Shown here: one piece after another, positions 27,264-63,753 of the stretch
Numbering within the stretch: position 1 is the stretch's first letter
Layout: every line of letters starts with the position of its first letter
Sequence record: NZ_CP041047.1
Origin: a plasmid
Length of the DNA stretch: 64,000 nt
Reading direction: 5' to 3' (one strand)
Program-made: the position numbers and the translations under genes
Notes under the pieces: generated by a model
Seen by the model: the letters and a program-made list of their open reading frames with translations, nothing else
Told to the model about the DNA's origin: nothing
Databases searched by the model: none

Positions 27264-27282
27264 TGTAAAATTCAGATAAAAA

Positions 27283-27312
27283 AACCGGCTGACGAATTCA
27301 GTCGGTTTAGTA
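27283..27312. terminator. Bidirectional hairpin terminator AAACCGGCTGACGAATTCAGTCGGTTT between convergent genes
   Basis: Read directly, flanked by A/T runs. Confidence 0.55.
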
Positions 27313-27348
27313 ATCCTGCAAAAGGATGCTGGACAGCGACGGACGACT

Positions 27349-28388: not shown

Positions 28389-28790
28389 GTGCCAAACTGC
28401 ATACCCCTTAATCCGGTATTACCTAAAAACTTCGACGATACACCTAATGAAAAGCGCTCAAAGTCTCAGCTTGATGCCTGGTGGGATCATCCATATGGCA
28501 TTACTTGCCCGGACGGGAAAATCACTGTTCGATGCCTGAATGGAGGAGCTTGGGATCGTTCGACAGTGCTGGGAGTAGCGGACAATTACGAAGAAGCCTG
28601 CGAGCTCGCAGAGCGCGAGCAATCAGCATGGGTCAAACGCCGTGCGGAGCCAATATTCTACTATAGCGGTGAAGCTCCATTCAGAGCGATAAGGGATGCA
28701 CAACGTCCTGATCAGGAGCAGACCTTTGTCGCGTCTTTTGACACGCAAGATGAGCTAATCAGCTGGCTTAATAGTCAGAAAACCAGTTAA
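28389..28790 (+). CDS. Hypothetical protein (133 aa)
   Basis: ORF at the head of the co-oriented low-GC gene block. Confidence 0.4.
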   Translation: MPNCIPLNPVLPKNFDDTPNEKRSKSQLDAWWDHPYGITCPDGKITVRCLNGGAWDRSTVLGVADNYEEACELAEREQSAWVKRRAEPIFYYSGEAPFRAIRDAQRPDQEQTFVASFDTQDELISWLNSQKTS

Positions 28791-28975
28791 TACCAAGTCT
28801 GGAAGTCTGCTTCTCAACAGACTTCCACATTTGATTATCAAGCTCCCCATAATTTGGGTTCAGTATAAACATTCCATTACGTTCTATTCCCCTCATTACA
28901 TTCATCTATCCGTAAATTTCGTTAGCCAGCACATCGGGGTGATACTGATGTCAGGTAAACAAAACGGATGCAAAA

Positions 28976-29266
28976 ATGCAGACATGTTCGGAAGTCCTGG
29001 CGGTTGAAATATTCAATCAAGTTGGACGTGAGGCAGCTATTGCTCAATATAACTTAATTTGTGAAATAGCCCAGCGACGTTACGAAGACAGCCTGGCCAA
29101 ATATGGTTCCGTGCCAGCTGGTTTCACCGCGCTCAATTTCCTCCATCCGGCAGAACTTCAGGAGCGTTACATCCTGGGGTTGGGAATTCAGCTTTGTATC
29201 GATGAGCAGCATGAAGCCAGGGAACGGGTTTTAGCTCGCTGCCTGGCAAGAAAAAGGGCCGCATAA
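28976..29266 (+). CDS. Hypothetical protein (96 aa)
   Basis: ORF only. Confidence 0.3.
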   Translation: MQTCSEVLAVEIFNQVGREAAIAQYNLICEIAQRRYEDSLAKYGSVPAGFTALNFLHPAELQERYILGLGIQLCIDEQHEARERVLARCLARKRAA

Positions 29267-29334
29267 ACAGGTGATAAAACAACTCAGCTATAGCTGAACA
29301 CGCACTAATTGGCTATGTTAACAAAACGAACAAG

Positions 29335-29580
29335 GTGGCGATTATGTACAGTGAATCTATCGATCGTGCTATCAGTATCCTCAAGGACGCGGGCGAAAAA
29401 ATCGGTATGGAACTGGGTAGTAATGTGACATCTCAGGAATCAGAACTGCTTGAGGATGCGCTGGTGGGCCTGACTAAAGTTAAAGGGCAACTCTGCGGTA
29501 ATCACTCCTTAACTGATGTAAAAGCGGACGTCGTGCCTTTTAGTCTCAGTTCGACGAAGAACGTCGATAGCCCGCATTAA
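29335..29580 (+). CDS. Hypothetical protein (81 aa)
   Basis: ORF only. Confidence 0.3.
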   Translation: MAIMYSESIDRAISILKDAGEKIGMELGSNVTSQESELLEDALVGLTKVKGQLCGNHSLTDVKADVVPFSLSSTKNVDSPH

Positions 29581-30487: not shown

Positions 30488-30892
30488 ATGAAAAAAGCTG
30501 TTTTTGGCCTTTTAGCACTATTGCCCTTCATAACCAGCGCAGAATCGATCGATCCGAACGATTTCTATGCTCAGCAGCCTTCTCAAAACTACCAACAACC
30601 TGCTGCCAGCGAGCAACAGGACGATGCTGACAATTCCAGTGACCAGACAGCTGCGATCGTATTGAACCTGGAAAGTTACAAACCGCTGGGGAATTTTGTA
30701 GTCCCCCAGGGAGTAGAACGCCCATTCATTGGTCTTATTAACAGCAAAATTTTCATACTGTCTGAGCAACCAGATAAACGCTTGGCTGGCCTATGGATAG
30801 GTCGTAGTCAGGATGGTCGTGAAGCACTTTGTGGTTACCTGAACAACAGTATGCAGGTCAGAAAATGTTATTACATCTTATATCGTGAGTAA
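30488..30892 (+). CDS. Hypothetical secreted protein (134 aa)
   Basis: N-terminal signal peptide MKKAVFGLLALLPFITSA. Confidence 0.45.
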   Translation: MKKAVFGLLALLPFITSAESIDPNDFYAQQPSQNYQQPAASEQQDDADNSSDQTAAIVLNLESYKPLGNFVVPQGVERPFIGLINSKIFILSEQPDKRLAGLWIGRSQDGREALCGYLNNSMQVRKCYYILYRE

Positions 30893-32030: not shown

Positions 32031-32354
32031 ATGCCTAAAGACGATGTTGCAACAATCATAATCCAGAATGGGTTGACGCATAAAGTAAATGTGATCTGCA
32101 AATTCAGCGCACAAATCGACAATCAAATGTTCTCATTCATCATCCATCGCACATTAAGCGTATGTCGATATGCGCTTGTCTGTAAGGTAACAGGCCAAAG
32201 AATTGCAGTTCTTGATACCAGTCGAGTAAAGGCACTTGGTATGGAAGCAGCAGGTAAACTAGCGCTATCAGATCTGGCCTCATCATTAGGCGAGACTAGA
32301 CTTGCTGCGATTCTGACAAATTCACTTCAGAGCAGGAGCGCGGCAAGTGAGTGA
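32031..32354 (+). CDS. Hypothetical protein (107 aa), translationally coupled to the PAPS-reductase-like gene
   Basis: Its stop overlaps the downstream GTG start. Confidence 0.4.
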   Translation: MPKDDVATIIIQNGLTHKVNVICKFSAQIDNQMFSFIIHRTLSVCRYALVCKVTGQRIAVLDTSRVKALGMEAAGKLALSDLASSLGETRLAAILTNSLQSRSAASE

Positions 32355-33417
32355 TTTAATCGACGATAACTTTATTATTCCTGCACTGAGTAGCATAGCA
32401 GGCATCACCACGCCACTATCAGGACAAACGTACAGGAACGCTCCAGATATCGACATATCTTGCTATGACGTGATAATCATTTGCCTTAGCGGCGGAAAAG
32501 ACTCCATAGCCTGCCTTCTCCACTTAATTGACATCGGGGTCGATCTGTCCAGGGTGGAACTCTGGCATCACGATGTTGATGGCCGCGAGGGAAGTACTTT
32601 AATGGACTGGCCATTTATGGCCGACTACAACCGCAAAATAGCTTCAACATTTCAGATACCGTTGATGTTCTCCTGGCTTCAGGGAGGAATGGAAGGTGAG
32701 ATGCTGAAAGAGAATGGCTACAGTCGCCCGCAATGTATCGAAACCCCAGATGGATTAATAATCGCGGAACGTGATATCCAGCGAAGCACTCCCGCCACGC
32801 GACTTCGGTTCCCTCAGCAATCACCAAGCCTTAAAACACGTTGGTGCTCATCAGCACTAAAAATTGATGTTGGTCGGCGAGCACTCACAAATCAGAGACG
32901 CTTTGACGGAAAAAAGGTGCTTTTTATTACGGGGGAAAGGAGAGCGGAAAGCTCTAATAGATTCAATTACTTACAACTGGAGCCACATACCAGCAGTTGC
33001 AAAAAAAGACAAGTTGATGCCTGGAGGCCAGTACTTGAATGGTCTGAAGAACAAGTCTGGGAGATTTTAGCAAAACATCGTGTTACAGCCCCAGTACCGT
33101 ATCGTCTTGGATGGGGTCGCAGTTCATGCTTAACGTGTATATACAACAGTGCTCGCATATGGGCAACCATCAAACATTATTTCCCCGAGCGTATTCACGC
33201 AATGGCCAACTATGAAAACCGCTTTGGGGTCACTATCAGTCGTAAACGAATAAATGTTCTGGATCTAAGCCAGAATATTTCTCCTATTAATATCACGGAT
33301 GAGGAAGCGCTGCTGCAAGCGGTAAATCCGGTCTATACATTGCCCGTCATTAACATGTCAAAAGAATGGGTGCTACCTGGTGGGGCGTACAACCGGGAGA
33401 AATGCGGGTCAGACTAA
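32347..33417 (+). CDS. Phosphoadenosine-phosphosulfate-reductase-family PP-loop protein
   Basis: PP-loop motif SGGKDS at residues 48-53. GTG start with an AGGAG RBS. Confidence 0.6.
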   Translation: MSDLIDDNFIIPALSSIAGITTPLSGQTYRNAPDIDISCYDVIIICLSGGKDSIACLLHLIDIGVDLSRVELWHHDVDGREGSTLMDWPFMADYNRKIASTFQIPLMFSWLQGGMEGEMLKENGYSRPQCIETPDGLIIAERDIQRSTPATRLRFPQQSPSLKTRWCSSALKIDVGRRALTNQRRFDGKKVLFITGERRAESSNRFNYLQLEPHTSSCKKRQVDAWRPVLEWSEEQVWEILAKHRVTAPVPYRLGWGRSSCLTCIYNSARIWATIKHYFPERIHAMANYENRFGVTISRKRINVLDLSQNISPINITDEEALLQAVNPVYTLPVINMSKEWVLPGGAYNREKCGSD

Positions 33418-38927: not shown

Positions 38928-39485
38928 ATGACTAATCGTGGCTATAGCAAAGTAATTATCGAAGGTACTGTAGGCCGTGAGCCTGAAATCCGACAACACC
39001 CTACCCACGGCATCTACGCAAAGATTTATGTAACAACATCTGAGTCCTCAATGGAGGATAAATCTGGTCTGGAGAAAATTACGGAAGAACACTATCAGAT
39101 CATTTTGCTTGGTCAATTTGCTGATGTGGCCCGCAATCATCTTCATGTCGGGACAGGAGTGTACCTGGAGGCCCAATTGCGTACCCGCCTAATCAAGGAG
39201 GATGGTAAAGAACGCTTCTTTATGGACGTACTTGTCAACCCCGTGAAGGGGCATGTTCTTCGCAAAGTCAATGTAGGCGGTAATAAACTGGTGAGTCGTC
39301 ACCTCCAGCAGAACCGTGGGCAGGATCACCGGCAGAATACCAGTTATAGCCGCAGGCCACAAAACACGAACGCGAGGCCAGCAACACCACGCAACTCGCC
39401 CCCAACAATGGAAAATTATTATTTGGGAAATCAGGATGAAGTTCCAGGAAGCACTGGTGCTTATGGAACTGAGATAGCCTTTTAA
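38928..39485 (+). CDS. Divergent single-stranded-DNA-binding (SSB/OB-fold)-like protein
   Basis: N-terminal SKVIIEGTVGREPEIRQ resembles the SSB start. Gly/Gln/Asn-rich tail ends in ...EIAF. Confidence 0.45.
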   Translation: MTNRGYSKVIIEGTVGREPEIRQHPTHGIYAKIYVTTSESSMEDKSGLEKITEEHYQIILLGQFADVARNHLHVGTGVYLEAQLRTRLIKEDGKERFFMDVLVNPVKGHVLRKVNVGGNKLVSRHLQQNRGQDHRQNTSYSRRPQNTNARPATPRNSPPTMENYYLGNQDEVPGSTGAYGTEIAF

Positions 39486-43142: not shown

Positions 43143-43229
43143 ACTTCATTTTTTCATAATTTGCTATTCGTCACTTGATTGACCGGGGGTACGATTAATT
43201 TAACACGGATAATTATGGGAGACAGTAAA

Positions 43230-44498
43230 ATGACAGACGCATCTACAATAGACGCAGTTCAACCAAAGGCAAGACGCTTATCATTTAAAGAGCTTCCAGG
43301 GTTTGATATTTCTGCTGAAGCACTTCTCAAAATTATCGAAATGCCGTGTATGGTTATTCGCCGGTCTCCTGCAATGAAAGTACTGGAGATGATCACGCTG
43401 CGGTTACGTGGGGATTGTCTTTCTGCCCTTGGCATTGACTTAAACTCTGCCCAAATTACCAGTAAAGGGACGGTATCGGGGGGCAATGGTGATATGGACG
43501 TATCAGTACCTGCAACACAACTCTTTTCTTTAATCCGCAACATGCGCGGCGAAGATGAAATTAACGTCCGCTTCCATGCGGCAAAAAACCATCTTGTCAT
43601 TCGCACCGACAAAAACTCCTATAACATCCCGGTTTGCTTAGACCATATACCCGAAATTCAGGCTGAGACGCTGGAACATAATTACAGCGTTTACTTTCCA
43701 ACGCAGATGCTGAGTCAGATTATCAAGCGTGTCAGCCACGCTGCGGCTCAGAACGATGTCCGCTTTTATATGAATGGGGTCTACCTCGGTATCGATAATG
43801 GCCAATTTATTGCTGTAGCCACTGATGGACATCGTATGGCCGTCAGTTCTCATGATATCGACTTCAGCGATGACGTGGGCGATGAGATTCAATCTCCGAC
43901 AGCTCCTACCTCTATCAGTAACACGAATGCAGGTGTGATTTTACCCAACGGGGTTTTCCCCGTGCTCCATAAAATCCTGAGCGGTAGCCAGGGTCAATTC
44001 AAAATTGACTACAGCAACCGTAACCTGACATTTACGCTCGGAAGCCATACAGTCATTTCAAATCTTGTCGATGGCCGTTACCCGGACTGGAAGCGCGTGG
44101 CCAGCACGGTAGCCAAAAATACTGAACTGTTTAAGGTTGATCCTTCTGAACTCACCACCGCACTAAAACGCGCAACCCCATTGCTTAAAGAGGGCTCGCC
44201 AAACAACACCAGTGTTTGTGTGATGTCATTCAAAGACAACGCCCTACAGCTTAAGTCGCCCGGCTCAAATGCAATCAGTTGCAAAGAGGTGATGGACATT
44301 GCGAAAGAGGCAGGCGAGCCCGAAACAATTGTTGATATCGGTATGAATGCCGATTACCTCCTGGAATCACTGGCAAGCCTGGGGGCGTGTTCGGAAGAAG
44401 GAGAAGCCGCACAGATTGCTTTGCGTGATACAACGACCGGCATATTGATTTCAGTAAACAAAAACAATTACGACATCATCATGCCTGTCCGTGTCTGA
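43230..44498 (+). CDS. DNA polymerase III beta-subunit (sliding clamp, DnaN)-like protein
   Basis: Three-domain length (about 420 aa). FYMNGVYLGIDNGQFIAVATDGHRMAV, GRYPDWKRV, IGMNADYLLESL and the C-terminal ...IIMPVRV align with conserved DnaN blocks. Confidence 0.6.
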   Translation: MTDASTIDAVQPKARRLSFKELPGFDISAEALLKIIEMPCMVIRRSPAMKVLEMITLRLRGDCLSALGIDLNSAQITSKGTVSGGNGDMDVSVPATQLFSLIRNMRGEDEINVRFHAAKNHLVIRTDKNSYNIPVCLDHIPEIQAETLEHNYSVYFPTQMLSQIIKRVSHAAAQNDVRFYMNGVYLGIDNGQFIAVATDGHRMAVSSHDIDFSDDVGDEIQSPTAPTSISNTNAGVILPNGVFPVLHKILSGSQGQFKIDYSNRNLTFTLGSHTVISNLVDGRYPDWKRVASTVAKNTELFKVDPSELTTALKRATPLLKEGSPNNTSVCVMSFKDNALQLKSPGSNAISCKEVMDIAKEAGEPETIVDIGMNADYLLESLASLGACSEEGEAAQIALRDTTTGILISVNKNNYDIIMPVRV

Positions 44499-44648
44499 CA
44501 AAACGCTCTCGTTTTGTCGGCCTTTTCGAAATAGCCAATTTCATGGGCGTGATAACGTTAAAACAAGCTTCCTGACGGGATGGCTATATGCCATCTCGCT
44601 CCCATTGGTCGCGATCACTGCGTCCTAATATTCTGGAGCCAGAATGAA

Positions 44649-45470
44649 ATGAAAAGCGTTCTGAAGTGGGTAGGAGCCAAACACAACATTATGGCAAGTC
44701 TTAAGCATGTACTACCGAAAGGTGGTCGGCTTATTGAGCCCTTTGGCGGTTCAGGCGCTGTAATGATGAATACGAATTACCCAGAATACATTTTGGCCGA
44801 TATTAATAGCGACCTGATCGATACATACCAGAGTATTTTTAAGTCGCCTGAAAAGGTACTTTCTGAGCTTAAACGCCTTTACTGTCTCGGGCGTTCTGAG
44901 GACGCCTATTATGAGCTGCGAAGCCAGTTCAATAATCATGATAGTGCAAGTGACACTCAAGCTGCTCTGTTTATCTATCTGAATAGGTTTGGCCATCGCG
45001 GACTATGCCGATACAACCGGAAAGGCATCTTTAACGTCCCCTGGGGTTATTACGCCAACCCCTATCTCCCAGAGACAGAGTTATACGCAATGGCTGAGAA
45101 AATGTCCTCAGCAACTTTACTTTGCGCCAGCTTCCAGACCACGCTATCAATGGCCCGCCCGGGTGATGTGGTGTATTGCGACCCACCATATGTTAATCCC
45201 GGCAGATTCACGGCTTACCATGCCAGCGGTTTTACACCCGCTATGCAGATTGAGCTTACCAAACTGCTCCAGTTGCTGCCTGAACGCGGGGTTCATGTCA
45301 TCGCATCATGCCACGATGCGCCTGATATTCGTGAGCTTTATCAAGCCTTCGCTATTCATGGTGTGACTGCCCGGAGAAGCATATTTAAAGGCAGCGGGGA
45401 TGGGAAAAAAGCTTCAGAAATCTTCGCGGTCAAATTAGCGGATAACTCGAAAAAGGGAGCTGCGGCATGA
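44649..45470 (+). CDS. Dam-family N6-adenine DNA methyltransferase (orphan; no cognate endonuclease seen)
   Basis: LKWVGAK, FGGSGAV (motif I) and DPPY (motif IV) in alpha-class order. Confidence 0.75.
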   Translation: MKSVLKWVGAKHNIMASLKHVLPKGGRLIEPFGGSGAVMMNTNYPEYILADINSDLIDTYQSIFKSPEKVLSELKRLYCLGRSEDAYYELRSQFNNHDSASDTQAALFIYLNRFGHRGLCRYNRKGIFNVPWGYYANPYLPETELYAMAEKMSSATLLCASFQTTLSMARPGDVVYCDPPYVNPGRFTAYHASGFTPAMQIELTKLLQLLPERGVHVIASCHDAPDIRELYQAFAIHGVTARRSIFKGSGDGKKASEIFAVKLADNSKKGAAA

Positions 45471-45697
45471 AACGCTTCCATTGTTCTGAAAAGCTGCATA
45501 ACCCAGAGACTGAGAAATTTTGTCAGGATATCGCCGAACAATATCGGACAGCACCTGATATTGCCGTGGCGCAGTTTAAACAAGTGCTGAGCTCTAAGCC
45601 TCTAACTTACTGGGAGTGTGTCGTGATCCGCGAGCGTGTCTCTGACCTTATTAAAATTAATCAAGCAACAGCTGAGGGCCACGATGAGCCAATTTAA
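45467..45697 (+). CDS. Hypothetical protein (76 aa)
   Basis: Overlaps the Dam stop. Confidence 0.3.
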   Translation: MKRFHCSEKLHNPETEKFCQDIAEQYRTAPDIAVAQFKQVLSSKPLTYWECVVIRERVSDLIKINQATAEGHDEPI

Positions 45698-46667
45698 ACC
45701 CAAAAGCCTTGTAGTCTACCGCATCCAAAAAGCTCTGGAATTAGACAAGCTGGATGAACAGTTAAGTGAGTTGAAATACACTCCCTGCGGGCCTAATGAT
45801 ATGGCACGGTCAGGATGGATCCCGCCATTGGGTGAAGATGTCGAGCTGTTAAAGCATGAGTCGAATAATCTCATTCTTCTGACTGTTAAGCACGAATCGA
45901 AAATACTTCCTCCCGCGACCATCAAAGAAATTGTGCGAACCCGGGTTCAGAAACTGGAGAAAGAGCAAAACCGCAGGCTAAAGAAAATGGAGATCCAGGC
46001 CGTCAACGATGCCGTGCTCGCTGAGCTCATACCAAAGGCTTTCAGCAAATACAGCACTACAAACATTTGGGTGGATACTAAATCACGTCTACTGCTTGTT
46101 GAGACCACCAGCCATAAAAAAGCAGATGATGTAACAGCTTTGCTACGTAAAACTATTGGCTCACTTCCAATTATCCCATTCACGCTGGAAACGCCGGTAG
46201 AACTGACGTTAACAGAGTGGGTCAAAACAGGAAGTCTGCCGCCTGGCCTAGCTTTATGCGACGAAGCCACGCTCAAAGATGTGCTCGAAAACGGGGGGGT
46301 CGTTACAACAAAACGCCAGGATTTGATATGTGATGAGATCGCTCATCACATCGAGGCCGGAAAGCTTGTGACAAAGGTTGCACTGGGCTGGATGAACCAG
46401 ATGTTTTTCATCCTGAATGACAATTTCATCTTTTCACGACTGACCTTTACGGAAGAACTTATTGAACAGAACGATGACATTTCGCCAGAAGATCACGCCC
46501 AAAGATTTGATGCCGATTTCGTTTTGTTTACCTCTGTTGTTATGGAGGTTCTGGACACAATGATAAAAGCCCTCGGGGGTGAAAGCCCAGGACTCATCAC
46601 AACGCCGTCAGACGAACAACAAGGTGTCGCGGCAGAAGCCAAACAACCAGAAAAAACCTTCCATTAA
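45684..46667 (+). CDS. rdgC: Recombination-associated protein RdgC homolog
   Basis: Collinear with E. coli RdgC: ...YTPCGPNDMARSGWIPP..., KKMEIQAVNDAVLAELIPKAFSKYSTTNIWVD, LTLTEWVKTGSLP, RFDADFVLFT. Confidence 0.75.
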   Translation: MSQFKPKSLVVYRIQKALELDKLDEQLSELKYTPCGPNDMARSGWIPPLGEDVELLKHESNNLILLTVKHESKILPPATIKEIVRTRVQKLEKEQNRRLKKMEIQAVNDAVLAELIPKAFSKYSTTNIWVDTKSRLLLVETTSHKKADDVTALLRKTIGSLPIIPFTLETPVELTLTEWVKTGSLPPGLALCDEATLKDVLENGGVVTTKRQDLICDEIAHHIEAGKLVTKVALGWMNQMFFILNDNFIFSRLTFTEELIEQNDDISPEDHAQRFDADFVLFTSVVMEVLDTMIKALGGESPGLITTPSDEQQGVAAEAKQPEKTFH

Positions 46668-46678: not shown

Positions 46679-47557
46679 ATGATTACAGCTACAGAACTCC
46701 AAGAGTTATCACGCCAGGTTGAAAATGCTAACATTGCCCGAGCCCTGGCAGTTAAAGAGTTGGTTAAAGAGACAAGAGATCGTCAGTTTTCATTGTGGGC
46801 GCTATTTATTGGTCTCTTCAGAGAGACACCGGCGCGAAAAAAGCTGAACGAATGTGAATTGCATCTTAACCTGCTGCTGCCAAAATGCAGGAGCATCTTT
46901 CTTCAATACGTAGTTATGTCCTCGTTGGAAGAAATTTCGAAATCACCAGATTGTGAGATTTATCAGCATCTAGTCAACTGCTGGAAAGAAGCTCAGATAA
47001 AATATAACGAGTCAGGCAGACGACTCAAACTTGCAGAAAATGCCCGTGAACTATTAAAAACAGCAAAGGATGAATGTAATAGTGCTTCCACAACTGAATT
47101 TCTGGATATGGTTACTACCAGTAAAGCAATATCCATACTTTCAGCAATAGACACATCCTCTGCGAGTAGTTCGTTAAAGAGAGCTATGGGTGCGCTTAAG
47201 CGATTAGCAGATGAAATGCCTGCCCGGCAATCACCTATTGATTCAAATTTACCAGATGACACGCTTGATCTGTTTGTCGATCTGACTATAAATCCTGTTA
47301 TCGATATTCTCTCCTGGTTAAATATTGAAAAGCTGGATAATGCCGAAGTGCAGTGCAGCAAAGCCTTAAAGAAACTTCAGACGTTATTAGGACAACTGGG
47401 TGCTGAGCATGATTTGAGAACTAAGGATTATCAATCTCAATTAGATACGCTTAAGAGAATTGAACAACCATACATCAAAAAGGTGATGCGGCATATACCC
47501 GAAAATATGAAGTTCAAGGAGCCTGAGTATCTCCAGACTATAGGAATGAACCCATGA
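46679..47557 (+). CDS. Hypothetical alpha-helical protein (292 aa), first gene of a 3-gene operon
   Basis: Its stop overlaps the next gene's start. Confidence 0.4.
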   Translation: MITATELQELSRQVENANIARALAVKELVKETRDRQFSLWALFIGLFRETPARKKLNECELHLNLLLPKCRSIFLQYVVMSSLEEISKSPDCEIYQHLVNCWKEAQIKYNESGRRLKLAENARELLKTAKDECNSASTTEFLDMVTTSKAISILSAIDTSSASSSLKRAMGALKRLADEMPARQSPIDSNLPDDTLDLFVDLTINPVIDILSWLNIEKLDNAEVQCSKALKKLQTLLGQLGAEHDLRTKDYQSQLDTLKRIEQPYIKKVMRHIPENMKFKEPEYLQTIGMNP

Positions 47558-48156
47558 CTCTAAAATATATAATCGCTCTCGCAATATTTCTGACATTTGT
47601 GTGCTTTGCAGCTTTCATACTTATCTACGCGAGTCGAACAAAACGAGAACAACAACAAACTCAGCAACCTTTGGACGAGCATGATCAGCAGGCAGATATT
47701 AATGCCGATGCCGACGAGAACGCCGCACTTGATGGGTTGAGCGAGTACTTCATCAAAAAAAATTCGATATTGCCAAAAGTCCTGATGGATCTTTATGTGC
47801 GCTTGAGTGCGGTGTTCAATGGTCAGTACATTATCGCACCCCAGGTGCTTGCCCGGGACTTAGTAGAGCTGGAGCTCGAAGATGAACCGGTTGCCCCGGT
47901 TGACGTACTTCAGGCGCAACAGTACGCAGATGAATTCGTGTTCGATTTTGTTCTCTCCGATGCGCATACCGGGGAACTAGTGCTAGCAATGATCAATGAA
48001 GATGCTATCAGCGCTCAGCCTGAAGGAGAGTTCATTATTGCCCTTTTTAAAAGAACTCACATTCCTGTCTTTCGCTATGAAACGTTGTCAGGCTTGGACG
48101 ATAACGCCCTGGCAGTCAACATCGCTGAATCAATAGACGATGGCCGATTCTCTTAG
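47554..48156 (+). CDS. Membrane-anchored DUF2726 (NERD-like) domain protein
   Basis: N-terminal TM helix, acidic linker, then FDFVLSD..LVLAMINED..HIPVFRYE matching the DUF2726 pattern. Confidence 0.5.
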   Translation: MTLKYIIALAIFLTFVCFAAFILIYASRTKREQQQTQQPLDEHDQQADINADADENAALDGLSEYFIKKNSILPKVLMDLYVRLSAVFNGQYIIAPQVLARDLVELELEDEPVAPVDVLQAQQYADEFVFDFVLSDAHTGELVLAMINEDAISAQPEGEFIIALFKRTHIPVFRYETLSGLDDNALAVNIAESIDDGRFS

Positions 48157-48174
48157 TTCCACAAGGAATTTATT

Positions 48175-48603
48175 ATGTCTCTGTCAAAAAAACAAAGAAT
48201 AGTACTGAGGGCTAAATTTGGTGGTCGATGTGCATATTGTGGCGAGGTACTGAAAGAAAAAGGTTGGCACGCTGATCACGTAGAACCTGTGCTAAGGAAA
48301 TCCGTACAGGATATGCAAGCTGCGGCCAGAGGGAAATTTAAGCTTAAGGCTACCGGTGAAGTGTTTAATGAAAGTGCCAACTGCTTAGAAAATCTTTTCC
48401 CAGCCTGTGCGCCCTGCAATCTGCTCAAAACAACATATTCACTGGAAATGTTCCGCAAACAAATAAGTTTACAGGTTGAAAGGGCACGGAAGAGTAGTAT
48501 GAATTTCAGAACGGCAGAAAGATTCGGCCAGATAAGCATTGTAGAGAAACCCATTGTTTTCTGGTTTGAACAGTATTCAGAGAAAAATGGTGCTATCAAA
48601 TAA
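48175..48603 (+). CDS. HNH endonuclease
   Basis: CAYCG...HADHVEP...CAPCN zinc/HNH motif. Confidence 0.65.
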   Translation: MSLSKKQRIVLRAKFGGRCAYCGEVLKEKGWHADHVEPVLRKSVQDMQAAARGKFKLKATGEVFNESANCLENLFPACAPCNLLKTTYSLEMFRKQISLQVERARKSSMNFRTAERFGQISIVEKPIVFWFEQYSEKNGAIK

Positions 48604-50440: not shown

Positions 50441-52150
50441 ATGAACCTACCGACAGCTGTATTAGCGAATAACGATGAAAATGAATCAGACGTCCTCAGC
50501 CTTTATGCTAATCCCGTAGACAGTCAAAGTGGCCTCATTGAACATGACGGCTTTCAAAAACTAAATGCCATGCGCGATCTGCTGGTGGAATACAACACAA
50601 CACTGAAGCACATGCAGGCCATGTATGATGCAGTGATGCGGAACCGGCATGATGAAGCATGGCGCATGTTCTGTGATTCTTGTGACAATTCCATCAAATA
50701 TACGCTGGCTGTAGAAAATTTGTTCTGTATAGAACGGGCCCGCTGTGCTCTCGATGAAAAGTACTGGCAAAAGCTGCTCGATCTGACCGGCGTAAAACCA
50801 TTTATGCCCACCGAAAGATACGATGACTGGAACGAAGGATTAAGGGCATGGCGAAAATCATCAGAATCAAATTTTGAGAAGCTTAAGCCTGTACCCTTCA
50901 ACGAAGAAAGTATCTTTTCTACCGCATTCGCATTGAATGAAGAGAAAAAAGACTACTTCGCCCAGATGGTTCATGGTGTGTTTGAAAAGCTCTCCGCTCT
51001 GCATAAGACTAACCGTGCCCAGGGCTTCAGCAACAAACTCATCATAGCCAGCTGCTTACCAAGTAGAGATAACCGCAGATCCTATGACTATCTCAACTAT
51101 TTTAATGACCTTCGTAAGGTTATTGGACTGATGTATGGACGAAGCGGTGCTGAGGATGTGAATTCGGCTGCGGTCAAAGAGTACATGATGAGTAACCCTG
51201 GCGAATGGGTAAGTATTGATAACGATAGTCTTAAAGTGAAGGGGTTTATTAACGGCAATGTGCATATCCTGATTGAGGAGGAAACTTGTGACAATCTCAA
51301 TCTGGTACTATCCCATTTAATGCCAGGCTGCATTCCTCTCGATCGCCGATACACCACCGGCCATAACTCCGCAAGAACTGTAAAAACCAATGAATATCGG
51401 TCGCAGTTGATATCATTCTCTGCTGTTAACTCCTTAATATCATATGCCACTGACCATTTGAACGCGGGCAAACACCTGTCACCGGGGCCGCACACTTTTA
51501 TCCTGCGGGACAACCAGTCTGTTAGTGAGAAAAAAGAACTGGTGAACATATGGGAGTCATTGGGTGCTGTCAGAAGATATAGAGAAGTATATGACTTTGA
51601 CTTTAGCCCCGTTGAAGCATTCAAACTTCTGGCATTACATGGTTCTATACCTGACCGCTATACGCACCAGTTCTATGCAACGGTCGGAGAACTCCAGAAA
51701 CGAGCAATTGATGAATGTATGGTGGCTTCAGGTATGCGTTTGCTGGAACCGAATATCGGTCTTGGTGCGCTACTGAAAGGGTTACCAGAGGGGGTGGATG
51801 TTACTGGTTTTGATATACACCCCGCAGCTGTTGCAATTACTGGCCTGCGCTGGAACGTCACCCTTAATGATTTTCTATTGGTCAAGCCTGAAAATACCGG
51901 CTTGTTTGAAAGAATTCTGATGAATCCTCCATTTAGTGACTCACGCTGGATTGCACATTTTCAACATGCGATGAGATTCCTGAAACCGGGAGGACGCTTG
52001 ATAGCAATACTGCCAGGGAGCGCAAAGGAGCATCTTTTAACCCGAGAAGCTGGGCCCGGTTACGACATCAATATTCTGGGTTGCTATGACAACGCCTTTG
52101 AAGGAACCGCAGAATCCATAAAACTTTTCTCCGTTGATGCCCATGAATAG
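50441..52150 (+). CDS. Large two-domain methyltransferase (uncharacterised N-terminal domain + C-terminal class-I SAM-dependent N6-adenine MTase module)
   Basis: C-terminal LEPNIGLGALL (motif I) and NPPF (motif IV). RBS GGAGA. Confidence 0.6.
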   Translation: MNLPTAVLANNDENESDVLSLYANPVDSQSGLIEHDGFQKLNAMRDLLVEYNTTLKHMQAMYDAVMRNRHDEAWRMFCDSCDNSIKYTLAVENLFCIERARCALDEKYWQKLLDLTGVKPFMPTERYDDWNEGLRAWRKSSESNFEKLKPVPFNEESIFSTAFALNEEKKDYFAQMVHGVFEKLSALHKTNRAQGFSNKLIIASCLPSRDNRRSYDYLNYFNDLRKVIGLMYGRSGAEDVNSAAVKEYMMSNPGEWVSIDNDSLKVKGFINGNVHILIEEETCDNLNLVLSHLMPGCIPLDRRYTTGHNSARTVKTNEYRSQLISFSAVNSLISYATDHLNAGKHLSPGPHTFILRDNQSVSEKKELVNIWESLGAVRRYREVYDFDFSPVEAFKLLALHGSIPDRYTHQFYATVGELQKRAIDECMVASGMRLLEPNIGLGALLKGLPEGVDVTGFDIHPAAVAITGLRWNVTLNDFLLVKPENTGLFERILMNPPFSDSRWIAHFQHAMRFLKPGGRLIAILPGSAKEHLLTREAGPGYDINILGCYDNAFEGTAESIKLFSVDAHE

Positions 52151-57743: not shown

Positions 57744-58479
57744 GGTATATACCTCATTAAAATGTTCAAAAGTATCGAAAATCCCAGTCATTTTAGATAG
57801 TAAGCTATCATGAAGCAAGGAATGCGCACCTGTAGCGCACATTTAATGTCCGCGAAATGACTATAAAAAGTGAATTACGAGTGTGTTAAACAGGAACGAT
57901 TCTAGCGGATTGAAATCTGGAGGGTAAACGAGCAAGAGAGATGTAAACGTAATATGCAGAGGTCGGTAGCCCTGGAACATCAACGGTAAAAGTAACAAAC
58001 CACCCGAAAAATGAACCAGAGCCACCAGATTAAATTGTGACGGTGGATGGCCAATACTGCAAGGGCTTACAAGATAAAGGCACATACAATGTAAGTCCAC
58101 ATGATAGCGTGTATTGGAAAGAAGAGTCACCAAACTGATAGATTTGACCCGGGCCAAAACTGTAGTCAGCAAACTTCGTAACTTATTGAACGGATTGTAG
58201 TAGACAAGACAGCTTCTGTGTCGCAATTATCTGAGGCCAATTGGAGCTCATACCAAGCCAAAACCCAGTGCGCACAATGAATGATTAAAACACAAATGCC
58301 TTTAAATTCAAGTACATATAACAAAGATTATGTTAAATAACCTCCATAGGTCTATTACTTCATGGTTCACTCATGCGGTCACAGAAATCAGCATGTTGTG
58401 AATTTTGAGATACCTCCCTTTTCTCACATTAGGTCTGTCGTACATTTACTTCACCGCATGCTGATTGTTGGGTATTTCT

Positions 58480-59853
58480 ATGTACTCACTTACCCAGATT
58501 GTAAGTTCAAACGGCCGAAGGCACTGGATTCTGATGGATGTAAAAATCTGTCTGCCAGCACTTTATCCGCTTAGGTATCTAGTTGACCATCTTGAGTATC
58601 GCTCGCTTTCAACTCAATCAGCTTCTCTCCAGGCGATTAAGTTTTTTTATGAGTTCTGGTACATGAAGCATAGAGCCACATTCTGCTATAGCTTTTACTG
58701 CTCGGGACATGACCCTGCAATCGCTATTCAGGAGATGACAGATTTTTTTCAATACTTAGAAAATGGTCGCATGGTCAGCTTCGCACCACGATTACTGCCA
58801 TTTAAACATTCTAGCGGCATGACAAATGCTTCTAGAGTACGTGCAGTGATTAGATTCATAGGCTACCTGATTGCTACCTATGTATCTCCGTACTATCGAA
58901 ATGAAACGCCCAAAGAATTGTCTCGTCATGCATCCCGTCTCAACACTCGATTGCTGATATGTAAAGACGACTTTAAAACTCTGGAAAGAAGCAATCAGCG
59001 GTATTATTCTCGAGTCACTCAAGGATTTCAGAGCATGACTGGTGATATGGTTGAAAATGTATATCGCATAGTCGTACCGAGTTCAAAACATAAAAATAAC
59101 CTTCTAAACCCCTTCCCTTCAGGATTTATTCAATTTCGCAATTATTTAATTATACGGTTAATGCTCAACTATGGGTTGCGTGTTGGTGAGTTGTTATTGT
59201 TAGAGTGCTCATCGGTTAAAGCTAGTATCAGTGGAGATAAATTTAGCTTAATCATTAGTATGCCTCAAAATATGACCGATCCAAGAACACATGCACCATC
59301 ATTAAAAAATGAGTACTCACATCGAGTTTTGGAACTAGATAAAGCAGATTATGAATTTCTTATTATTTACATGCAGAAAATTAGGAGAAAATCAATAACT
59401 CACAACTTCATATTTGCATCAAGACAAAATCCTGAAAGCCCTTTATCCTATAATGCAGTACATTTGATTTTCTCTGAGATAGATAAGGTTTTTTCACTTA
59501 ACTATCCTGAATGTAAATCAGCAGAGCGCTTTGATGCTCTAATGAAATTTACACCTCATGTTACACGGCATACATGGGCTTACTTAACTATAAAGAAACT
59601 ATATAATTTACAAAATAAAAGATTTAATGGCGCTGGTAATGATTTTGTCAAAAACTCACTTTCAATAGGGGTGATGGATGAGGCAAAAGAGACTCTCCGT
59701 TTGCTGGGCGGTTGGAGTATAAAAAGTCAAATGCCTGAACTTTATGCAAAAAGATTTTTATCTGAGCAAGCCAATGCTGAAAATATCCATCGATTATTAC
59801 AACATGATTCTGAGCTCGATTACTTGATGAAGGAGTTGTTTGATGGATATTAA
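58480..59853 (+). CDS. Tyrosine recombinase 1 of 3 (start uncertain; the ORF is open from 58465)
   Basis: Box I NYGLRVGELLLL (Arg). Box II HVTRHTWAY. Downstream Tyr LYAKRF. Low-GC. Confidence 0.65.
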   Translation: MYSLTQIVSSNGRRHWILMDVKICLPALYPLRYLVDHLEYRSLSTQSASLQAIKFFYEFWYMKHRATFCYSFYCSGHDPAIAIQEMTDFFQYLENGRMVSFAPRLLPFKHSSGMTNASRVRAVIRFIGYLIATYVSPYYRNETPKELSRHASRLNTRLLICKDDFKTLERSNQRYYSRVTQGFQSMTGDMVENVYRIVVPSSKHKNNLLNPFPSGFIQFRNYLIIRLMLNYGLRVGELLLLECSSVKASISGDKFSLIISMPQNMTDPRTHAPSLKNEYSHRVLELDKADYEFLIIYMQKIRRKSITHNFIFASRQNPESPLSYNAVHLIFSEIDKVFSLNYPECKSAERFDALMKFTPHVTRHTWAYLTIKKLYNLQNKRFNGAGNDFVKNSLSIGVMDEAKETLRLLGGWSIKSQMPELYAKRFLSEQANAENIHRLLQHDSELDYLMKELFDGY

Positions 59854-61393
59854 ATATAATAAACAGTCTCTATCAGACTCTAGAATGTTTGATCGAAATC
59901 TATCTTCAAAACTAGAATGTTTAGTCATTCCTAAAGATGTTTTTTTGAAATCTAGCAGCGATTTTGATGATAAGCATATTCACAACGGGGAAAATAAATG
60001 GGTTTTTTATTATTCAGGAAGCAAGCGATATGTTTACTTCAAGCTTGATAAGTTAACCAATACTCTATTGAAGTACTTTTGTTTCAAATATGCATCCACG
60101 ATGTTCCCAACTTTCTTACCAGTACTGTCATATCAGTGGACACAAGCATTCAATTACTGTAGTGAAAATGGCGGTTTTAGATTGAACACTTTGCGACAGT
60201 ATATTGAAAACGATGACCTAGATGCCAGGGGCTTCTATTCTATATTATTCGGACTGAAGATCCTTTGCTCTGAAGAGTTTCCTGGATTTACTTTGGAAGA
60301 CTATGAGGATCTTGAGTTTATACCCAGACCAAATGCGTTTAACTGGGATATTTATCAGGATATTGACAATCTCCTCGATCCTTTTGAAAAAAACATGATA
60401 AGTAAAGGATTATTTGAAATGGCAGCGGCGTTGGCTAGGGGAAAATATTATGACATCAGAGAACTCAAACATGCCGCAATACTCGGATTAAGTTATGTTA
60501 CTGGGGCACGTCCTGTGCAGTTGGCAAAATTAGCTGTTAAAGACTTGCGTCTTGATACCTGTGATAATAGCACCGGACTATTTCGATACAGTATTCTGCT
60601 ACCTTACGTCAAACAACGACGCCTTACGACCGACCGTTTACTGCTGGCTATTCCACCGGAAATTGGTGCGATAATTAAGCAATATGTGGAGCGAACCCAG
60701 TTATTACCTGATGATAAAATGTTCGACATGGGAGTGTCCGCCCCTGCTTTTGCCTCTAAGTCTATAAGCCAAGCAATTCTAAACTTCAGCCCACCTGATT
60801 ATCAAACTGCCGTTGCTTGCGGCGAGGCAGCCCTACCAACAATCACATCAACCGATTTACGCCACAACGTTGGTCACTCACTAGCTATGCAAGGAGCCAG
60901 TGCGGAGGAGATTGCTCACATTCTTGGCCATTCATCTCTAGTTGTAGCAAAGCACTACATCCTGGCGACACCAGCCTTGGCATTGATCCGCGCTAAAGCT
61001 CTTGGTTCTAACCCCGTCTGGCAAAACATGGTGGCTATGATGTTGACTGGGAAATTGGTCACTTCAAAAGAATGGCAAGGTCGACGTGTGGTTGGAATTG
61101 TTGGGGACCGGCTGCACTACGAGATCGGCGGTTGTTCTAGAGCCGATGACGAATGCCCTTTCTGTGAAGTCCGTTGCTGTTATGGTTGCTTATATTACCG
61201 CCCTTTCCTCGATGGTCATCACCAGGACGTATTAGAAAGCGTCTCTAAAGAAGTCGATGAGCTAATAGCTGTTTCTGATTGCGTCGGGAATGCTCACAAT
61301 CCACTAATTTCTATCCACGAAACAACGCAGATCGAAGTCAAGTCAGTAATAGCCCGTTGTCATTTGCATCACGTCAAAGGTTGTGAACAATGA
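59840..61393 (+). CDS. Tyrosine recombinase 2 of 3 with a C-terminal Cys/His-rich extension
   Basis: Box I TGARPVQLAKL. Box II LRHNVGHSLA..HILGHSSLVVAKHY. Tail CSRADDECPFCEVRCCYGCLYY...HH. Overlaps recombinase 1 by 14 nt. Confidence 0.65.
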   Translation: MMDIKYNKQSLSDSRMFDRNLSSKLECLVIPKDVFLKSSSDFDDKHIHNGENKWVFYYSGSKRYVYFKLDKLTNTLLKYFCFKYASTMFPTFLPVLSYQWTQAFNYCSENGGFRLNTLRQYIENDDLDARGFYSILFGLKILCSEEFPGFTLEDYEDLEFIPRPNAFNWDIYQDIDNLLDPFEKNMISKGLFEMAAALARGKYYDIRELKHAAILGLSYVTGARPVQLAKLAVKDLRLDTCDNSTGLFRYSILLPYVKQRRLTTDRLLLAIPPEIGAIIKQYVERTQLLPDDKMFDMGVSAPAFASKSISQAILNFSPPDYQTAVACGEAALPTITSTDLRHNVGHSLAMQGASAEEIAHILGHSSLVVAKHYILATPALALIRAKALGSNPVWQNMVAMMLTGKLVTSKEWQGRRVVGIVGDRLHYEIGGCSRADDECPFCEVRCCYGCLYYRPFLDGHHQDVLESVSKEVDELIAVSDCVGNAHNPLISIHETTQIEVKSVIARCHLHHVKGCEQ

Positions 61394-63753
61394 AAAAAAA
61401 TATTGAGAACTTTGACACTTTTATTACGGAACAAAAAGCCTGGTTCGGTGAGAATCTGGCAGCAGATTTTGCAGAGTCATGGGATAGCCGTACATGGGTG
61501 TGTGGGCGCAAAGGCTCCGGCTGGTTACGTGGCAATGGTGATAGTGTATTGCGTTTCGATGAAATTAATCGGCTCAAAGGGATCGACGAGCACCATACTT
61601 TATCCGAGCCTTATCAGCTGTTCATGAAAGCCATGTTGGTACTCGTCTACCGAGCTAGAAATCGCAGTATTTCCCCTGCGGTTGCTGTTGCAACGCTGGT
61701 TATTTTGAAACGCTGGTACTGCGCTCTCTTCAAGTTAACCGGGCAAACGCATCCCATCTATCTGACTACAGATGTCGTACGTAGCGCAATGGATACTCTG
61801 AGTGCTGCATCCCGGCCAGGTGATCCCAACGTTGCCAATTACAAGGGGCGTTGCGTTAAGATTCAAAAATTAGTAAACCATCACGCCTTCACATTAGTAA
61901 CACTGCAATATGTATCCGATGATCGTTATACCAATCAGACTAATTTGACCCGAAAAGCCCGGGAAACAATCGCTCTAAAACAAAAAGACAAGCTGGATGA
62001 TACGGCCACTGATGGTGAAGATGCTCTGATTACAATTAGAGGGTTCCTCAATATAGTGTCATTAATCCAGCGAGTCGAAAGCAGCACTGAAAAGATTGCT
62101 CTCAATTGCCTTCTGTTACTGATCGTCACCGGATTTCGTTCTGTCGAAGCATTCAATCTCAGGCAGGATGCGTTAGTCAAACGACAAATAGATAGCCAAA
62201 ATATTAGTAGGCACCTGAAAGATAAGGGGTTACCGGATTATTTTCTTGGCATCCGTTATATTGGTGTTAAGGGAGCAGGTGAACGAACACATTGGGTCGA
62301 GCCCTTAGCGGTCCCTTTGGTTGAGAGCATATTCAGCTCGGTTAAGTCGCTAACAGTTGAGTTACGAAAGCATCTCGCAAATTTACGCTCAAAAGAATTT
62401 GCTGATTATTTACCTGAGGCAATCTGTGAATTTGAGGGTGAACTCGTTGAACTCGATGATATTGTAGAACACATAGCCCAGTCCTCATCAGAGCTTCGTG
62501 GTCGTGCAGGATTACGTGATAAAGTGTCGAAAGCGTTATCAAAACGAGGCTGTATCCCGACTCAAGTCATTCTTGGAACACGTAATCAGAAAGGAAAATA
62601 TTACTCAAAATCAGACCTTAGCCTTTTTCTTAAAAATGAATTTGGTGATAACAGCGAAAATACTCCCTGTACTCACGCATGGATAGAAAATGGCAAAAGA
62701 TATGAGGTTATGTATGAGGATTTATTGTTCCTTTTCCCTAAAGGATCTCTGACTTTAAAAAGAGGGTTGGAGCTGAAAACAACACCACAGCCACTTAGTA
62801 ATGCTGGACTAAACAAATTTCTCGGTAACGTTGACGGTCATTCTTCGGTCTTCAGTAAATATAGGCTGCTCGAAGATGATGGCCGCCCCACCCAGCTCCG
62901 TACTCATATTCCTCGTCACAATATAAACACTTTTCTCGCTATTGCTGAGATTTCAGACCACTTACAAGCGATGCTGATGGGGCGTGTTGATATCACTCAA
63001 AATCAGCATTATCAGCACCTGGCTCTCAAGGAACGGCGAAAAGCAGCTTCTCTAACCCCTTTAGTTCCAACCGTACCGGAGCAGTCAGCATCTAGTGCTG
63101 TTGACGTTGATTCACCTCTCGATGCGGTAAAGAAAAGTGGTTTAATGACGTTTAATCGCGTCCAGAGCCTGGAAATAAATATAAAGGCAAACCTACATAC
63201 CTTCGATGACCGTAACGATGTTGCAGGCTTCATTGAAGCGTCCTTAGGTGATGGATTATTCGAAGACATTGCCGCTGCGTTTGAAGAAATCAGTAAAAAC
63301 GAAGGGCCATCGCAAGCATCTGAAATGGTGCAAAGGCACGCTGTACTGCATCCATTGAAATTGGGTTCTTGCATGAGAGACGTTAACTTGTGGGGATGCC
63401 CTTATCGAATGAAGTGTCAGGCATTGAAGCCCTGTGAGCATTTCACGTTGACCGGGCGTGTTGATGAATACTCCGCTGTTGTATTCAAAGGTAGGGCATT
63501 AAACGAGGCCAAACTTGCTTTTGAACAGTATACCGCAGCCCTTTCTGACAACCAGCTAGTGCAAGGCAATATTGACGATAGTCTTGCACAGCTAGATGCA
63601 CTAAGTGAGCAATTACGCAGACGCTCAAACTCGTTGGAAGCAATTACCTCACAGGCACTTCTGTCAGGAGAAATAAAGGTGGAAGGTGAAATTCGTACAC
63701 TGGCTCAATTATTTGCTATCGAGTACCAAAAAATCAAACAAGGAGAAGACTGA
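61390..63753 (+). CDS. Tyrosine recombinase 3 of 3 (787 aa, long C-terminal extension)
   Basis: Box I TGFRSVEAFNL. Box II RTHIPRHNINTFLA...LMGR...HYQHL. Overlaps recombinase 2 by 4 nt. Confidence 0.6.
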   Translation: MKKNIENFDTFITEQKAWFGENLAADFAESWDSRTWVCGRKGSGWLRGNGDSVLRFDEINRLKGIDEHHTLSEPYQLFMKAMLVLVYRARNRSISPAVAVATLVILKRWYCALFKLTGQTHPIYLTTDVVRSAMDTLSAASRPGDPNVANYKGRCVKIQKLVNHHAFTLVTLQYVSDDRYTNQTNLTRKARETIALKQKDKLDDTATDGEDALITIRGFLNIVSLIQRVESSTEKIALNCLLLLIVTGFRSVEAFNLRQDALVKRQIDSQNISRHLKDKGLPDYFLGIRYIGVKGAGERTHWVEPLAVPLVESIFSSVKSLTVELRKHLANLRSKEFADYLPEAICEFEGELVELDDIVEHIAQSSSELRGRAGLRDKVSKALSKRGCIPTQVILGTRNQKGKYYSKSDLSLFLKNEFGDNSENTPCTHAWIENGKRYEVMYEDLLFLFPKGSLTLKRGLELKTTPQPLSNAGLNKFLGNVDGHSSVFSKYRLLEDDGRPTQLRTHIPRHNINTFLAIAEISDHLQAMLMGRVDITQNQHYQHLALKERRKAASLTPLVPTVPEQSASSAVDVDSPLDAVKKSGLMTFNRVQSLEINIKANLHTFDDRNDVAGFIEASLGDGLFEDIAAAFEEISKNEGPSQASEMVQRHAVLHPLKLGSCMRDVNLWGCPYRMKCQALKPCEHFTLTGRVDEYSAVVFKGRALNEAKLAFEQYTAALSDNQLVQGNIDDSLAQLDALSEQLRRRSNSLEAITSQALLSGEIKVEGEIRTLAQLFAIEYQKIKQGED

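Follow-up and report, generated by a model that had tools for sequence, protein, structure and literature searches.

Mobile elements that carry a DnaN-type beta sliding clamp of their own include Pseudomonas megaplasmids of the pBT2436 type, Vibrio pW6G and the phages Ralstonia GP4 and Rhizobium 16-3, in all of which the clamp is annotated and functionally unstudied. Extra dnaN copies are also present in chromosomes, such as dnaN2 of Bacillus anthracis and griR of Streptomyces, the latter involved in self-resistance to griselimycin. Here we examine a further clamp gene from a 64,000-nt stretch of the plasmid record NZ_CP041047.1 (the window; all coordinates are positions in it), together with the downstream genes for an orphan Dam-family methyltransferase and an RdgC paralog. 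An earlier note on this DNA had read the three genes as an establishment/anti-defense or replication-hijacking toolkit. We find an intact, strongly divergent clamp in a block that is a conserved part of the backbone of a family of large conjugative plasmids with a MOBH relaxase and an F-type pilus in Citrobacter, Klebsiella and Enterobacter. The clamps of the mobile elements named above are 20–26% identical to the window protein, no closer to it than chromosomal clamps are, and have neither the extension nor the insertion described below; their genes do not adjoin dam or rdgC. The products of dnaN2 and griR are likewise second clamps, but they are encoded in the chromosome or in a biosynthetic cluster and resemble the resident clamp far more closely.

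A second point of comparison is phage P1, in which the RdgC-family gene hrdC adjoins dmt, a GATC adenine methylase gene, and which shares with the window a set of paralogs of the host SSB (single-stranded DNA-binding protein), UmuD, RdgC and Dam. Phage P1 also carries ssb, humD and hot. The P1-type HrdC and the window RdgC share about 45% identity. The P1 arrangement differs in that hrdC precedes dmt, the reverse of the order in the window, Dmt is a large fusion enzyme, clamp and Tus are missing, and the element is a phage-plasmid and not conjugative. RdgC homologs occur on 1228 plasmids in PLSDB, of which about 600 are from E. coli and are mostly non-mobilizable and about 90–115 kb in size; one E. 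coli RdgC plasmid that was inspected is P1-like, with rdgC (P1 hrdC) next to the Dam-family dmt. The finding is therefore less novel than the earlier note implied, as the pairing of RdgC and Dam is known from P1 and more than 100 records in RefSeq already bear the labels dnaN, Dam-family methyltransferase and rdgC; the three genes are of an ordinary kind and were annotated in public records beforehand.

In plasmid leading regions transcription runs toward oriT, since the strand that is transferred serves as the template. The strand bias of these regions has been described, orphan methyltransferases and SSBs are typical of them, and umuDC often bounds such islands (PMC11541004). The gene array in the window resembles the F-like leading regions of Samuel et al. 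(2024, PMC11541004) in being one-directional, in its combination of ssb with orphan methylases, in having umuDC at one end and in its orientation toward the relaxase side; RdgC could here play the RecA-damping role of PsiB. It differs in its distance of about 32–45 kb from mobH, and psiB, ardA and Frpo-like hairpins were not found in the neighbors and three spacers that were scanned. A clamp, dnaN or rdgC is not mentioned by Samuel et al. (PMC11541004).

A divergent plasmid-encoded sliding clamp

The clamp gene lies at 43230–44498 on the plus strand and encodes 422 amino acids. The ATG at 43230, which is also the choice of RefSeq, is the likely start and is preceded by a GGGAGA ribosome-binding site 7 nt upstream; the alternative in-frame starts are an ATG at 43215 and the TTG at 43179 that opens the maximal open reading frame (ORF). 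The genes proposed earlier for this interval are thus real, but its left boundary, 43179, corresponds to the maximal TTG frame and not to the likely start of DnaN. The three clamp domains of Pfam (PF00712, PF02767, PF02768) are present in order with scores of 36.5 (N-terminal), 83.1 (central) and 35.0 bits (C-terminal), all above their gathering thresholds, and span residues 42–437 of the maximal ORF, while the TIGR00663 score is 142.5 against a cut-off of 137.65. Residues 25–421 of the clamp align to the solved clamps of P. aeruginosa (4tsz, E 1.4e-27) and E. coli (1mmi, E 1.1e-20), and the C-terminus reads IMPVRV. With E. coli DnaN (P0A988; 1mmi, 2pol) the protein shares the three-domain fold, the cleft residues, the MPxR end and the hydrophobic interface positions; it differs in that its gene is carried by a conjugative plasmid and lies apart from dnaA and recF. 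That the gene encodes a genuine DnaN homolog with three clamp domains and no truncation, as first proposed, is upheld by these domain searches and by a ratio of nonsynonymous to synonymous substitution rates (dN/dS) of 0.095, and the reading frame is intact in every plasmid family examined.

An AlphaFold2 model built from a 65-sequence alignment has a mean predicted local distance difference test score of 93.1 and a predicted template-modeling (TM) score of 0.87. When this model was compared to the PDB with Foldseek, the best 50 matches were all beta clamps, with E-values down to 6e-34 and target TM scores of 0.88–0.92 save for two longer fusion constructs (0.71 and 0.75); the best match was the E. 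coli clamp (target TM 0.90, E 6e-34), and clamps of P. aeruginosa were likewise among the best. Relative to chromosomal clamps, the plasmid clade carries an N-terminal extension of about 24 amino acids and a 16-amino-acid insertion in domain II, predicted confidently in the model.

Identity of the clamp to E. coli DnaN is 23%, compared to about one half for the plasmid Dam and RdgC and their E. coli counterparts. An exhaustive HMMER scan of 1.84 billion representatives clustered at 50% identity recovered only three relatives of full length, with identities of 57, 53 and 38%, after which the E-value leaps from 1e-88 to 3e-27, where the ordinary chromosomal clamps begin; a word-indexed search agrees. 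All close relatives with available context are on Enterobacterales plasmids or plasmid-like contigs, which are MOBH megaplasmids wherever the replicon was typed. On these comparisons the clade is small, sharply isolated and uncharacterized, and it might be the only part of the locus of note to specialists.

Functional residues of the E. coli clamp were mapped onto the plasmid protein through the alignment. The cleft is identical at 14 E. coli positions (R152, Y154, T172, G174, H175, R176, P242, R246, V247, N320, Y323, M362, P363 and R365) and differs conservatively at three (L155M, L177M and M364V), and these positions are kept across the whole plasmid clade. Structure prediction and inspection of the cleft, both suggested in the earlier note, agree with the clamp assignment. 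Given a cleft that is nearly unchanged, the plasmid clamp should bind canonical clamp-binding motifs, and a resistance role of the griR kind is not indicated. The hydrophobic residues of the dimer interface are also kept (F106Y, L108I, I272L, L273L), whereas several ionic interface positions and basic inner-ring positions are not (see below). A crude count from sequence over the six channel helices gives a net charge of +2 compared to +4 in E. coli; this value is lower but falls within the range of other clamps, so that the count favors neither side.

A matching clamp-binding motif in the plasmid UmuC had been raised as a possibility, and one is present. The gene umuC (23057–24322, plus strand) follows umuD (approximately 22641–23057) and an exact LexA box of the form CTGT-N8-ACAG (22604–22619), and its RefSeq-annotated product is 56% identical to E. 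coli UmuC, with QLDLF aligned to QLNLF (residues 357–361). In a scan of the proteins of the window for clamp-binding motifs, only the match in UmuC was convincing; an internal QLRMF of Tus and a comparable hit in the restriction enzyme were set aside as probably due to chance, and a clamp-binding motif was not found in RepB of p705SK3_1.

Dam, RdgC and the reading frame between them

The methyltransferase gene most likely starts at 44649 and extends to 45470 on the plus strand, encoding a Dam-family (D12, alpha-class) N6-adenine DNA methyltransferase of 273 amino acids. It matches the full MethyltransfD12 profile (PF02086, E 2.3e-54), has EPFGGSG and DPPY in its translation, and has E. coli Dam (2g1p, E 1.3e-65) as its closest solved relative. 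The GATC-reading residues of E. coli Dam, which we take from the EcoDam-DNA structure to be K9, L122, R124 and P134, all have kept equivalents, whereas the two residues assumed to intercalate, Y119 and N120, are replaced by His and Arg. The protein passes the subfamily cut-off of TIGR00571 and stays below the cut-off of the E. coli Dam equivalog (250 against 441). Because of the Y119H and N120R replacements and the passing of the subfamily cut-off only, GATC specificity is probable but unproven on residue conservation. GATC itself is mildly under-represented in the backbone (observed/expected 0.72), which is uninformative because CATG and TATA are similar, and clusters of GATC were found neither in or near the block nor downstream of repB.

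The enzyme is an orphan, as had been claimed. Its neighbors are dnaN, a 76-amino-acid ORF and rdgC, so that a flanking endonuclease partner is absent; the HNH gene located 2.7 kb downstream is EndoVII/HNH-like, and the best PADLOC model is 'orphan methyltransferase' (7e-86). Separately, a complete type II restriction-modification pair is found upstream in the accessory region (16078–18801; restriction enzyme on the plus strand, C5-cytosine methyltransferase on the minus strand), flanked by a recombinase and IS5708/IS26 and unrelated to the orphan Dam.

The rdgC gene (45684–46667, plus strand, with 45684 as its most likely start) encodes a full-length RdgC paralog of 327 amino acids with a C-terminal tail of about 25 amino acids. 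Positions 4–298 of the 298 in PF04381 are covered (E 5.8e-93), residues 7–301 align to E. coli RdgC (2owl, E 2.2e-94), and the score for the NCBIfam equivalog NF001462 is 385.8 against a cut-off of 330, all in line with the full-length homolog described before. From a similarity of about 55% to E. coli RdgC, the protein is inferred to form a ring-shaped dimer, to bind DNA and to inhibit RecA. RdgC does not directly follow Dam: a conserved 76-amino-acid ORF (45467–45697, plus strand; present in our ORF list and in RefSeq) lies between the two genes and overlaps both the dam stop and the rdgC start. Its product belongs to the phage family phrog_5072 (E 1.1e-14).

To assess selection, the window was compared with the 93–95% identical allele on K. 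michiganensis pKOCBH-A. The dN/dS values were 0.095 for dnaN, 0.11 for dam, 0.13 for the 76-amino-acid ORF and 0.05 for rdgC, which by sequence comparison places all four genes under purifying selection. In the same comparison ssb was 100% identical and the interval from dnaN through dam and the 76-amino-acid ORF to rdgC was 93.5–94.8% identical at the DNA level, with a synonymous divergence of about 0.2. With ssb identical and the block diverged, the block exists in at least two allelic forms, which recombination has exchanged within a backbone that is otherwise near-identical.

The backbone neighborhood and its relatives

In PLSDB, 99 plasmids carry the 3.5-kb block at 100% identity and six more at 90–95%. 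Its hosts are Citrobacter (76 records), Klebsiella, Enterobacter, E. coli, Salmonella, Kosakonia and Raoultella, and the plasmids that carry it are 190–450 kb in size, with a MOBH relaxase where typed. The whole window is approximately collinear with C. freundii pNFYY361-1. The family includes pS39-1, pTEM-2262 (MG387191), pCCRI24236-1 and pKPC-CAV1321-244, reported as untypable or as a novel incompatibility group, and shares a backbone of about 203 kb that is conserved and contains two unclassified replicons (PMC7893115, PMC8614947). Conjugative transfer has been reported for family members (PMC7893115). The papers on the family name repA, repB, par, stb, ccd, umuC and tra and leave the clamp, Dam and RdgC unmentioned (PMC7893115, PMC8614947). 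An assignment to IncHI4 (pNDM-CIT) was considered and dropped, since the match to KY270851 was confined to accessory DNA and the literature gives an unknown incompatibility group.

Within this backbone the block is part of an array of about 30 kb in which nearly all genes point in one direction, in the order umuDC, tus, many small ORFs, ssb, dnaN, dam, rdgC, DUF2726, HNH and a DUF4942 methylase; the presence of Pol V (umuDC), Tus and SSB on the same replicon had been noted before and holds. The Tus homolog is encoded at 24472–25362 (plus strand; Pfam Ter E 5.5e-45, RefSeq) and the SSB at 38928–39485 (plus strand; Pfam SSB E 2.4e-12, NCBIfam ssb). All of dnaN, dam, the 76-amino-acid ORF and rdgC are intact and on the plus strand. 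From dam through this ORF and rdgC to a 292-amino-acid protein gene and the DUF2726 gene, neighboring genes overlap or nearly abut, while dnaN is set apart from dam by a spacer of 150 nt (44499–44648, plus strand) with a hairpin directly after the dnaN stop (44499–44516, CAAAACG-CTCT-CGTTTTG). Downstream of rdgC, three close-packed genes with gaps of at most 11 nt or overlaps (46679–48603, plus strand) encode the 292-amino-acid protein, the DUF2726 protein (Pfam E 2e-4) and a small HNH/EndoVII-like nuclease (Pfam HNH E 2e-4; phrog_2118 HNH 3.7e-53). At the downstream end of the conserved array a second orphan DNA methyltransferase-like gene (50441–52150, plus strand) matches DUF4942 (Pfam 2.3e-20) and, over its full length, phrog_6263 'DNA methyltransferase' (2.5e-96), with a weak PADLOC match to mad2.

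The order ssb, dnaN, dam, rdgC and DUF2726 recurs in two other plasmid families, with ssb syntenic in both and a DUF2726 gene after rdgC in all three families examined. In MOBH plasmids of Proteus, Providencia and Moellerella the DnaN is 51% identical, a gene for a MazG-type pyrophosphohydrolase stands between dnaN and dam, and the array runs on to a syntenic DUF4942 methylase gene. In E. coli pECTOK-001_1 the DnaN is 36% identical, and a DinG helicase gene and other genes are inserted. A metagenomic relative with a 45% identical clamp has, in this order, dnaN, several genes, a DinG-like helicase gene and a D12 methylase gene, and in contigs of Salmonella diarizonae a 56% identical clamp lies among unrelated genes, with neither dam nor rdgC within 10 kb. 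Conservation of the block on related plasmids, a check suggested in the earlier note, thus holds for the gene order, but not for a closed block, and a discrete three-gene toolkit is not what the relatives show: the inserted genes and the lineage with dnaN alone point to a backbone neighborhood and not to a three-gene system. The three genes are neighbors by descent within a larger module and form no obligatory triad.

Identities between the window and Proteus pPM54 were 51% for DnaN, 57% for Dam, 66% for RdgC, 55% for UmuC, 47% for the DUF4942 protein and 49% for MobH. The clamp has therefore diverged in step with the relaxase, which argues for an old backbone gene and not a recent capture, and in this respect the earlier view that these are not captured housekeeping genes was right. 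On Proteus mirabilis pPM54-NDM_252k, a homolog of the Pol III theta subunit, comparable to P1 hot, was also observed (30580–30825 of the sequence compared), between umuDC and the relaxase region, which lengthens the list of replisome-accessory paralogs in this plasmid lineage.

Common regulation of the block was sought in several ways. Control by the SOS response was rejected as a candidate, as the sole exact LexA box in the window precedes umuD and none is near dnaN, dam or rdgC. Promoter and terminator counts at 42–48.7 kb were no higher than in shuffled sequences, and a search for a shared regulatory repeat across a 32-kb array returned only short repeats at chance level. As single-stranded DNA, the spacer between dnaN and dam is more structured than its shuffles (z −3.55), with several short hairpins and no single long stem.

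Some other genes were recorded in passing. Directly after tus, a lone gene at 25456–26055 (plus strand) matches type IV-A3 Cas6 (PADLOC PDLC01711, E 1.1e-38; weak Pfam CRISPR_assoc); no further csf or cas genes were found near it, nor was a CRISPR-like array in a repeat search of 22–54 kb, and it could be a remnant or a stand-alone factor that processes CRISPR RNA or interferes. Proteins with a PAPS-reductase (3'-phosphoadenosine 5'-phosphosulfate reductase) domain are frequent on mobile elements, and one encoded in the array at 32347–33417 (plus strand) resembles BrxP, SspD and DndC (PADLOC E 5e-13 to 5e-8). Downstream of parMR, at 58465–63753 (plus strand), genes for two tyrosine-recombinase-like integrases (462 and 517 amino acids) and a 787-amino-acid protein are co-directional and look like a small integrative island; their products are below every NCBIfam cut-off, including those of the gamma-mobile-trio models, by which a gene in another part of p705SK3_1 is annotated. 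On pNFYY361-1, just past the position of the right end of the window (26428–29567 of the pNFYY361-1 segment compared), genes for an ATP-binding protein and then a UvrD-helicase-domain protein resemble a Gabija-type defense pair.

Candidate roles of the neighborhood

Our preferred reading, to which we give a probability of roughly 0.55, is that the neighborhood is a plasmid-supplied accessory set for replication, repair and establishment, comparable to that of phage P1. The plasmid would supply its own versions of host DNA-transaction accessory factors for a low-copy conjugative replicon of 200–450 kb. The clamp would form a DnaN-type ring that the host clamp loader loads via the conserved hydrophobic cleft, and this ring may tether host Pol III and the plasmid Pol V (through QLDLF of UmuC) on plasmid DNA. 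Pol V needs a clamp, and tethering could aid complementary-strand synthesis, gap filling and lesion bypass. Dam would methylate GATC, marking plasmid DNA as 'self/old strand', and may protect it against GATC-cutting restriction in hosts in which Dam is scarce or absent. In vitro, RdgC is an inhibitor of RecA strand exchange and of LexA cleavage; the plasmid paralog would coat DNA and restrain RecA filaments and, like PsiB of F-like plasmids, may lower SOS induction and recombination at single strands that enter the cell and at gaps.

Several observations weigh against this proposal. All enterobacterial hosts have their own Dam, RdgC and DnaN, and a benefit of further copies is not evident. Residues of the ionic clamp interface are changed (R105S, E300I, E303K) and the basic inner-ring residues R73, R197 and K198 are replaced; with these losses and an identity of 23%, loading by the host loader and sliding on DNA are not guaranteed. 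The intercalating pair of Dam is altered, as noted above, and linkage among dnaN, dam and rdgC is loose across relatives. Literature searches on plasmid-borne dnaN and leading-region rdgC returned no functional study.

The position of the array is a further such point. The relaxase gene mobH was located by tblastn, earlier relaxase scans of OW969905 (non-mobilizable) and of part of p705SK3_1 having found none. In pCCRI24236-1, the least interrupted member, the array runs on one strand toward mobH-traD-traL/E/K, and about 31.7 kb with about 38 annotated genes separates the end of rdgC from mobH downstream (a distance to mobH, not to oriT); pPM54 has the same layout, with the array about 45 kb upstream of mobH. 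The strand bias toward mobH, the ssb and the two methylases are features of a leading region, and the orientation is in keeping with DNA that enters early, but the distance is at odds with a definition as the first genes in. Also counting against an establishment role, families of ArdA, PsiB, KlcA and Acr were not found with Pfam and PADLOC in the scanned neighbors, which cover part of the array, leaving ssb as the only known establishment gene, and folding of three spacers on the template strand gave short hairpins only and none that were Frpo-like.

Among the alternatives, the one that survives best, although we consider it unlikely, is that there is no joint function: the genes would be independent parts of the backbone, neighbors by ancestry and each with its own, perhaps minor or host-dependent, role, and the clamp maybe a dispensable paralog comparable to the second dnaN copies of some chromosomes. 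The MazG-type, DinG and hypothetical genes inserted among the three in relatives, the lone dnaN of the Salmonella diarizonae contigs and the hairpin and 150-nt gap between dnaN and dam all fit with this, as does the occurrence of RdgC on 1228 plasmids of which most are without this clamp. Neither hrdC nor dmt is essential for lytic growth of phage P1 according to a CRISPR interference study (PMC10695390). However, the gene order has survived divergence of the relaxase to about 49% identity and of DnaN to 36%, and purifying selection on all the genes is strong. Independence of this kind is also compatible with, and partly included in, a role as a plasmid-supplied accessory set.

The anti-defense function proposed in the earlier note finds less favor, and we regard it as rather improbable. 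Here Dam would block GATC restriction, RdgC would block RecA- or SOS-linked defenses, and the clamp would be a decoy or a resistant substitute for host clamps that come under attack from toxins or phage-type inhibitors or are targets of clamp-sensing defense systems. The frequency of orphan methyltransferases and SSBs in leading regions and of umuDC at their boundaries (PMC11541004) is consistent with such a function, and so are the co-orientation of the array toward mobH and the presence in it of a second orphan methylase (DUF4942) and of the BrxP/DndC-like PAPS-reductase-domain protein; the altered ionic interface could in addition make the clamp independent of that of the host. Against this stand the 32–45 kb and dozens of ORFs between the block and mobH and the lack of known anti-defense families among the scanned neighbors and of Frpo-like hairpins in the three spacers. 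PADLOC has no match for the clamp, RdgC or the downstream hypothetical genes, and with a cleft that is almost unchanged, inhibitors directed at it should still bind.

More speculative, and a slimmer possibility again, is that the clamp is an orthogonal, private processivity ring, whose rewired interface would prevent mixing with the host clamp and whose N-terminal tail and domain II insertion would recruit plasmid partners (Pol V, perhaps RdgC, Dam or other proteins of the array) or shield it from clamp-directed toxins or defenses of the host. Were this true, the ring would be a dedicated replication and repair platform of MOBH megaplasmids that decides establishment in a new host.

We think it very unlikely that the clamp manipulates the host by competing for the clamp loader, Pol III, Hda or MutL or by forming mixed rings, and so retunes replication initiation (the regulatory inactivation of DnaA), mismatch repair or the cell cycle to the benefit of the plasmid, as a form of replication hijacking. 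With its cleft conserved, the protein would be able to bind every clamp partner of the host, and the N-terminal extension and domain II insertion could confer a further function. Mismatch repair and the control of initiation are processes on which an additional Dam and an additional clamp both bear, which speaks for this possibility. However, these plasmids are stably carried in many genera, and the sequence does not distinguish such a protein from a plain accessory clamp. Finally, a decaying or chimeric remnant, which the 23% identity to host DnaN, the barely passed TIGR00663 cut-off and the modest N- and C-terminal Pfam scores might suggest, is excluded by the three domains in order, the end-to-end alignment, the confident model, the dN/dS of 0.095 and a frame that is intact in every family examined.

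What results is above all a correct annotation of previously labeled genes, together with the recognition of an ancient, conserved backbone neighborhood. With an identity of 23% and a cleft that is kept, the clamp is a natural experiment that is useful for separating what is essential in a clamp from host-specific features. Members of the plasmid family disseminate resistance genes, including those for carbapenemase and fosA3, among Citrobacter, Klebsiella, Enterobacter and E. coli, both in hospitals and in wastewater. If the clamp, Dam and RdgC help to convert, protect and stabilize transferred DNA, they would be plasmid-specific targets and would help to explain how very large plasmids become established.

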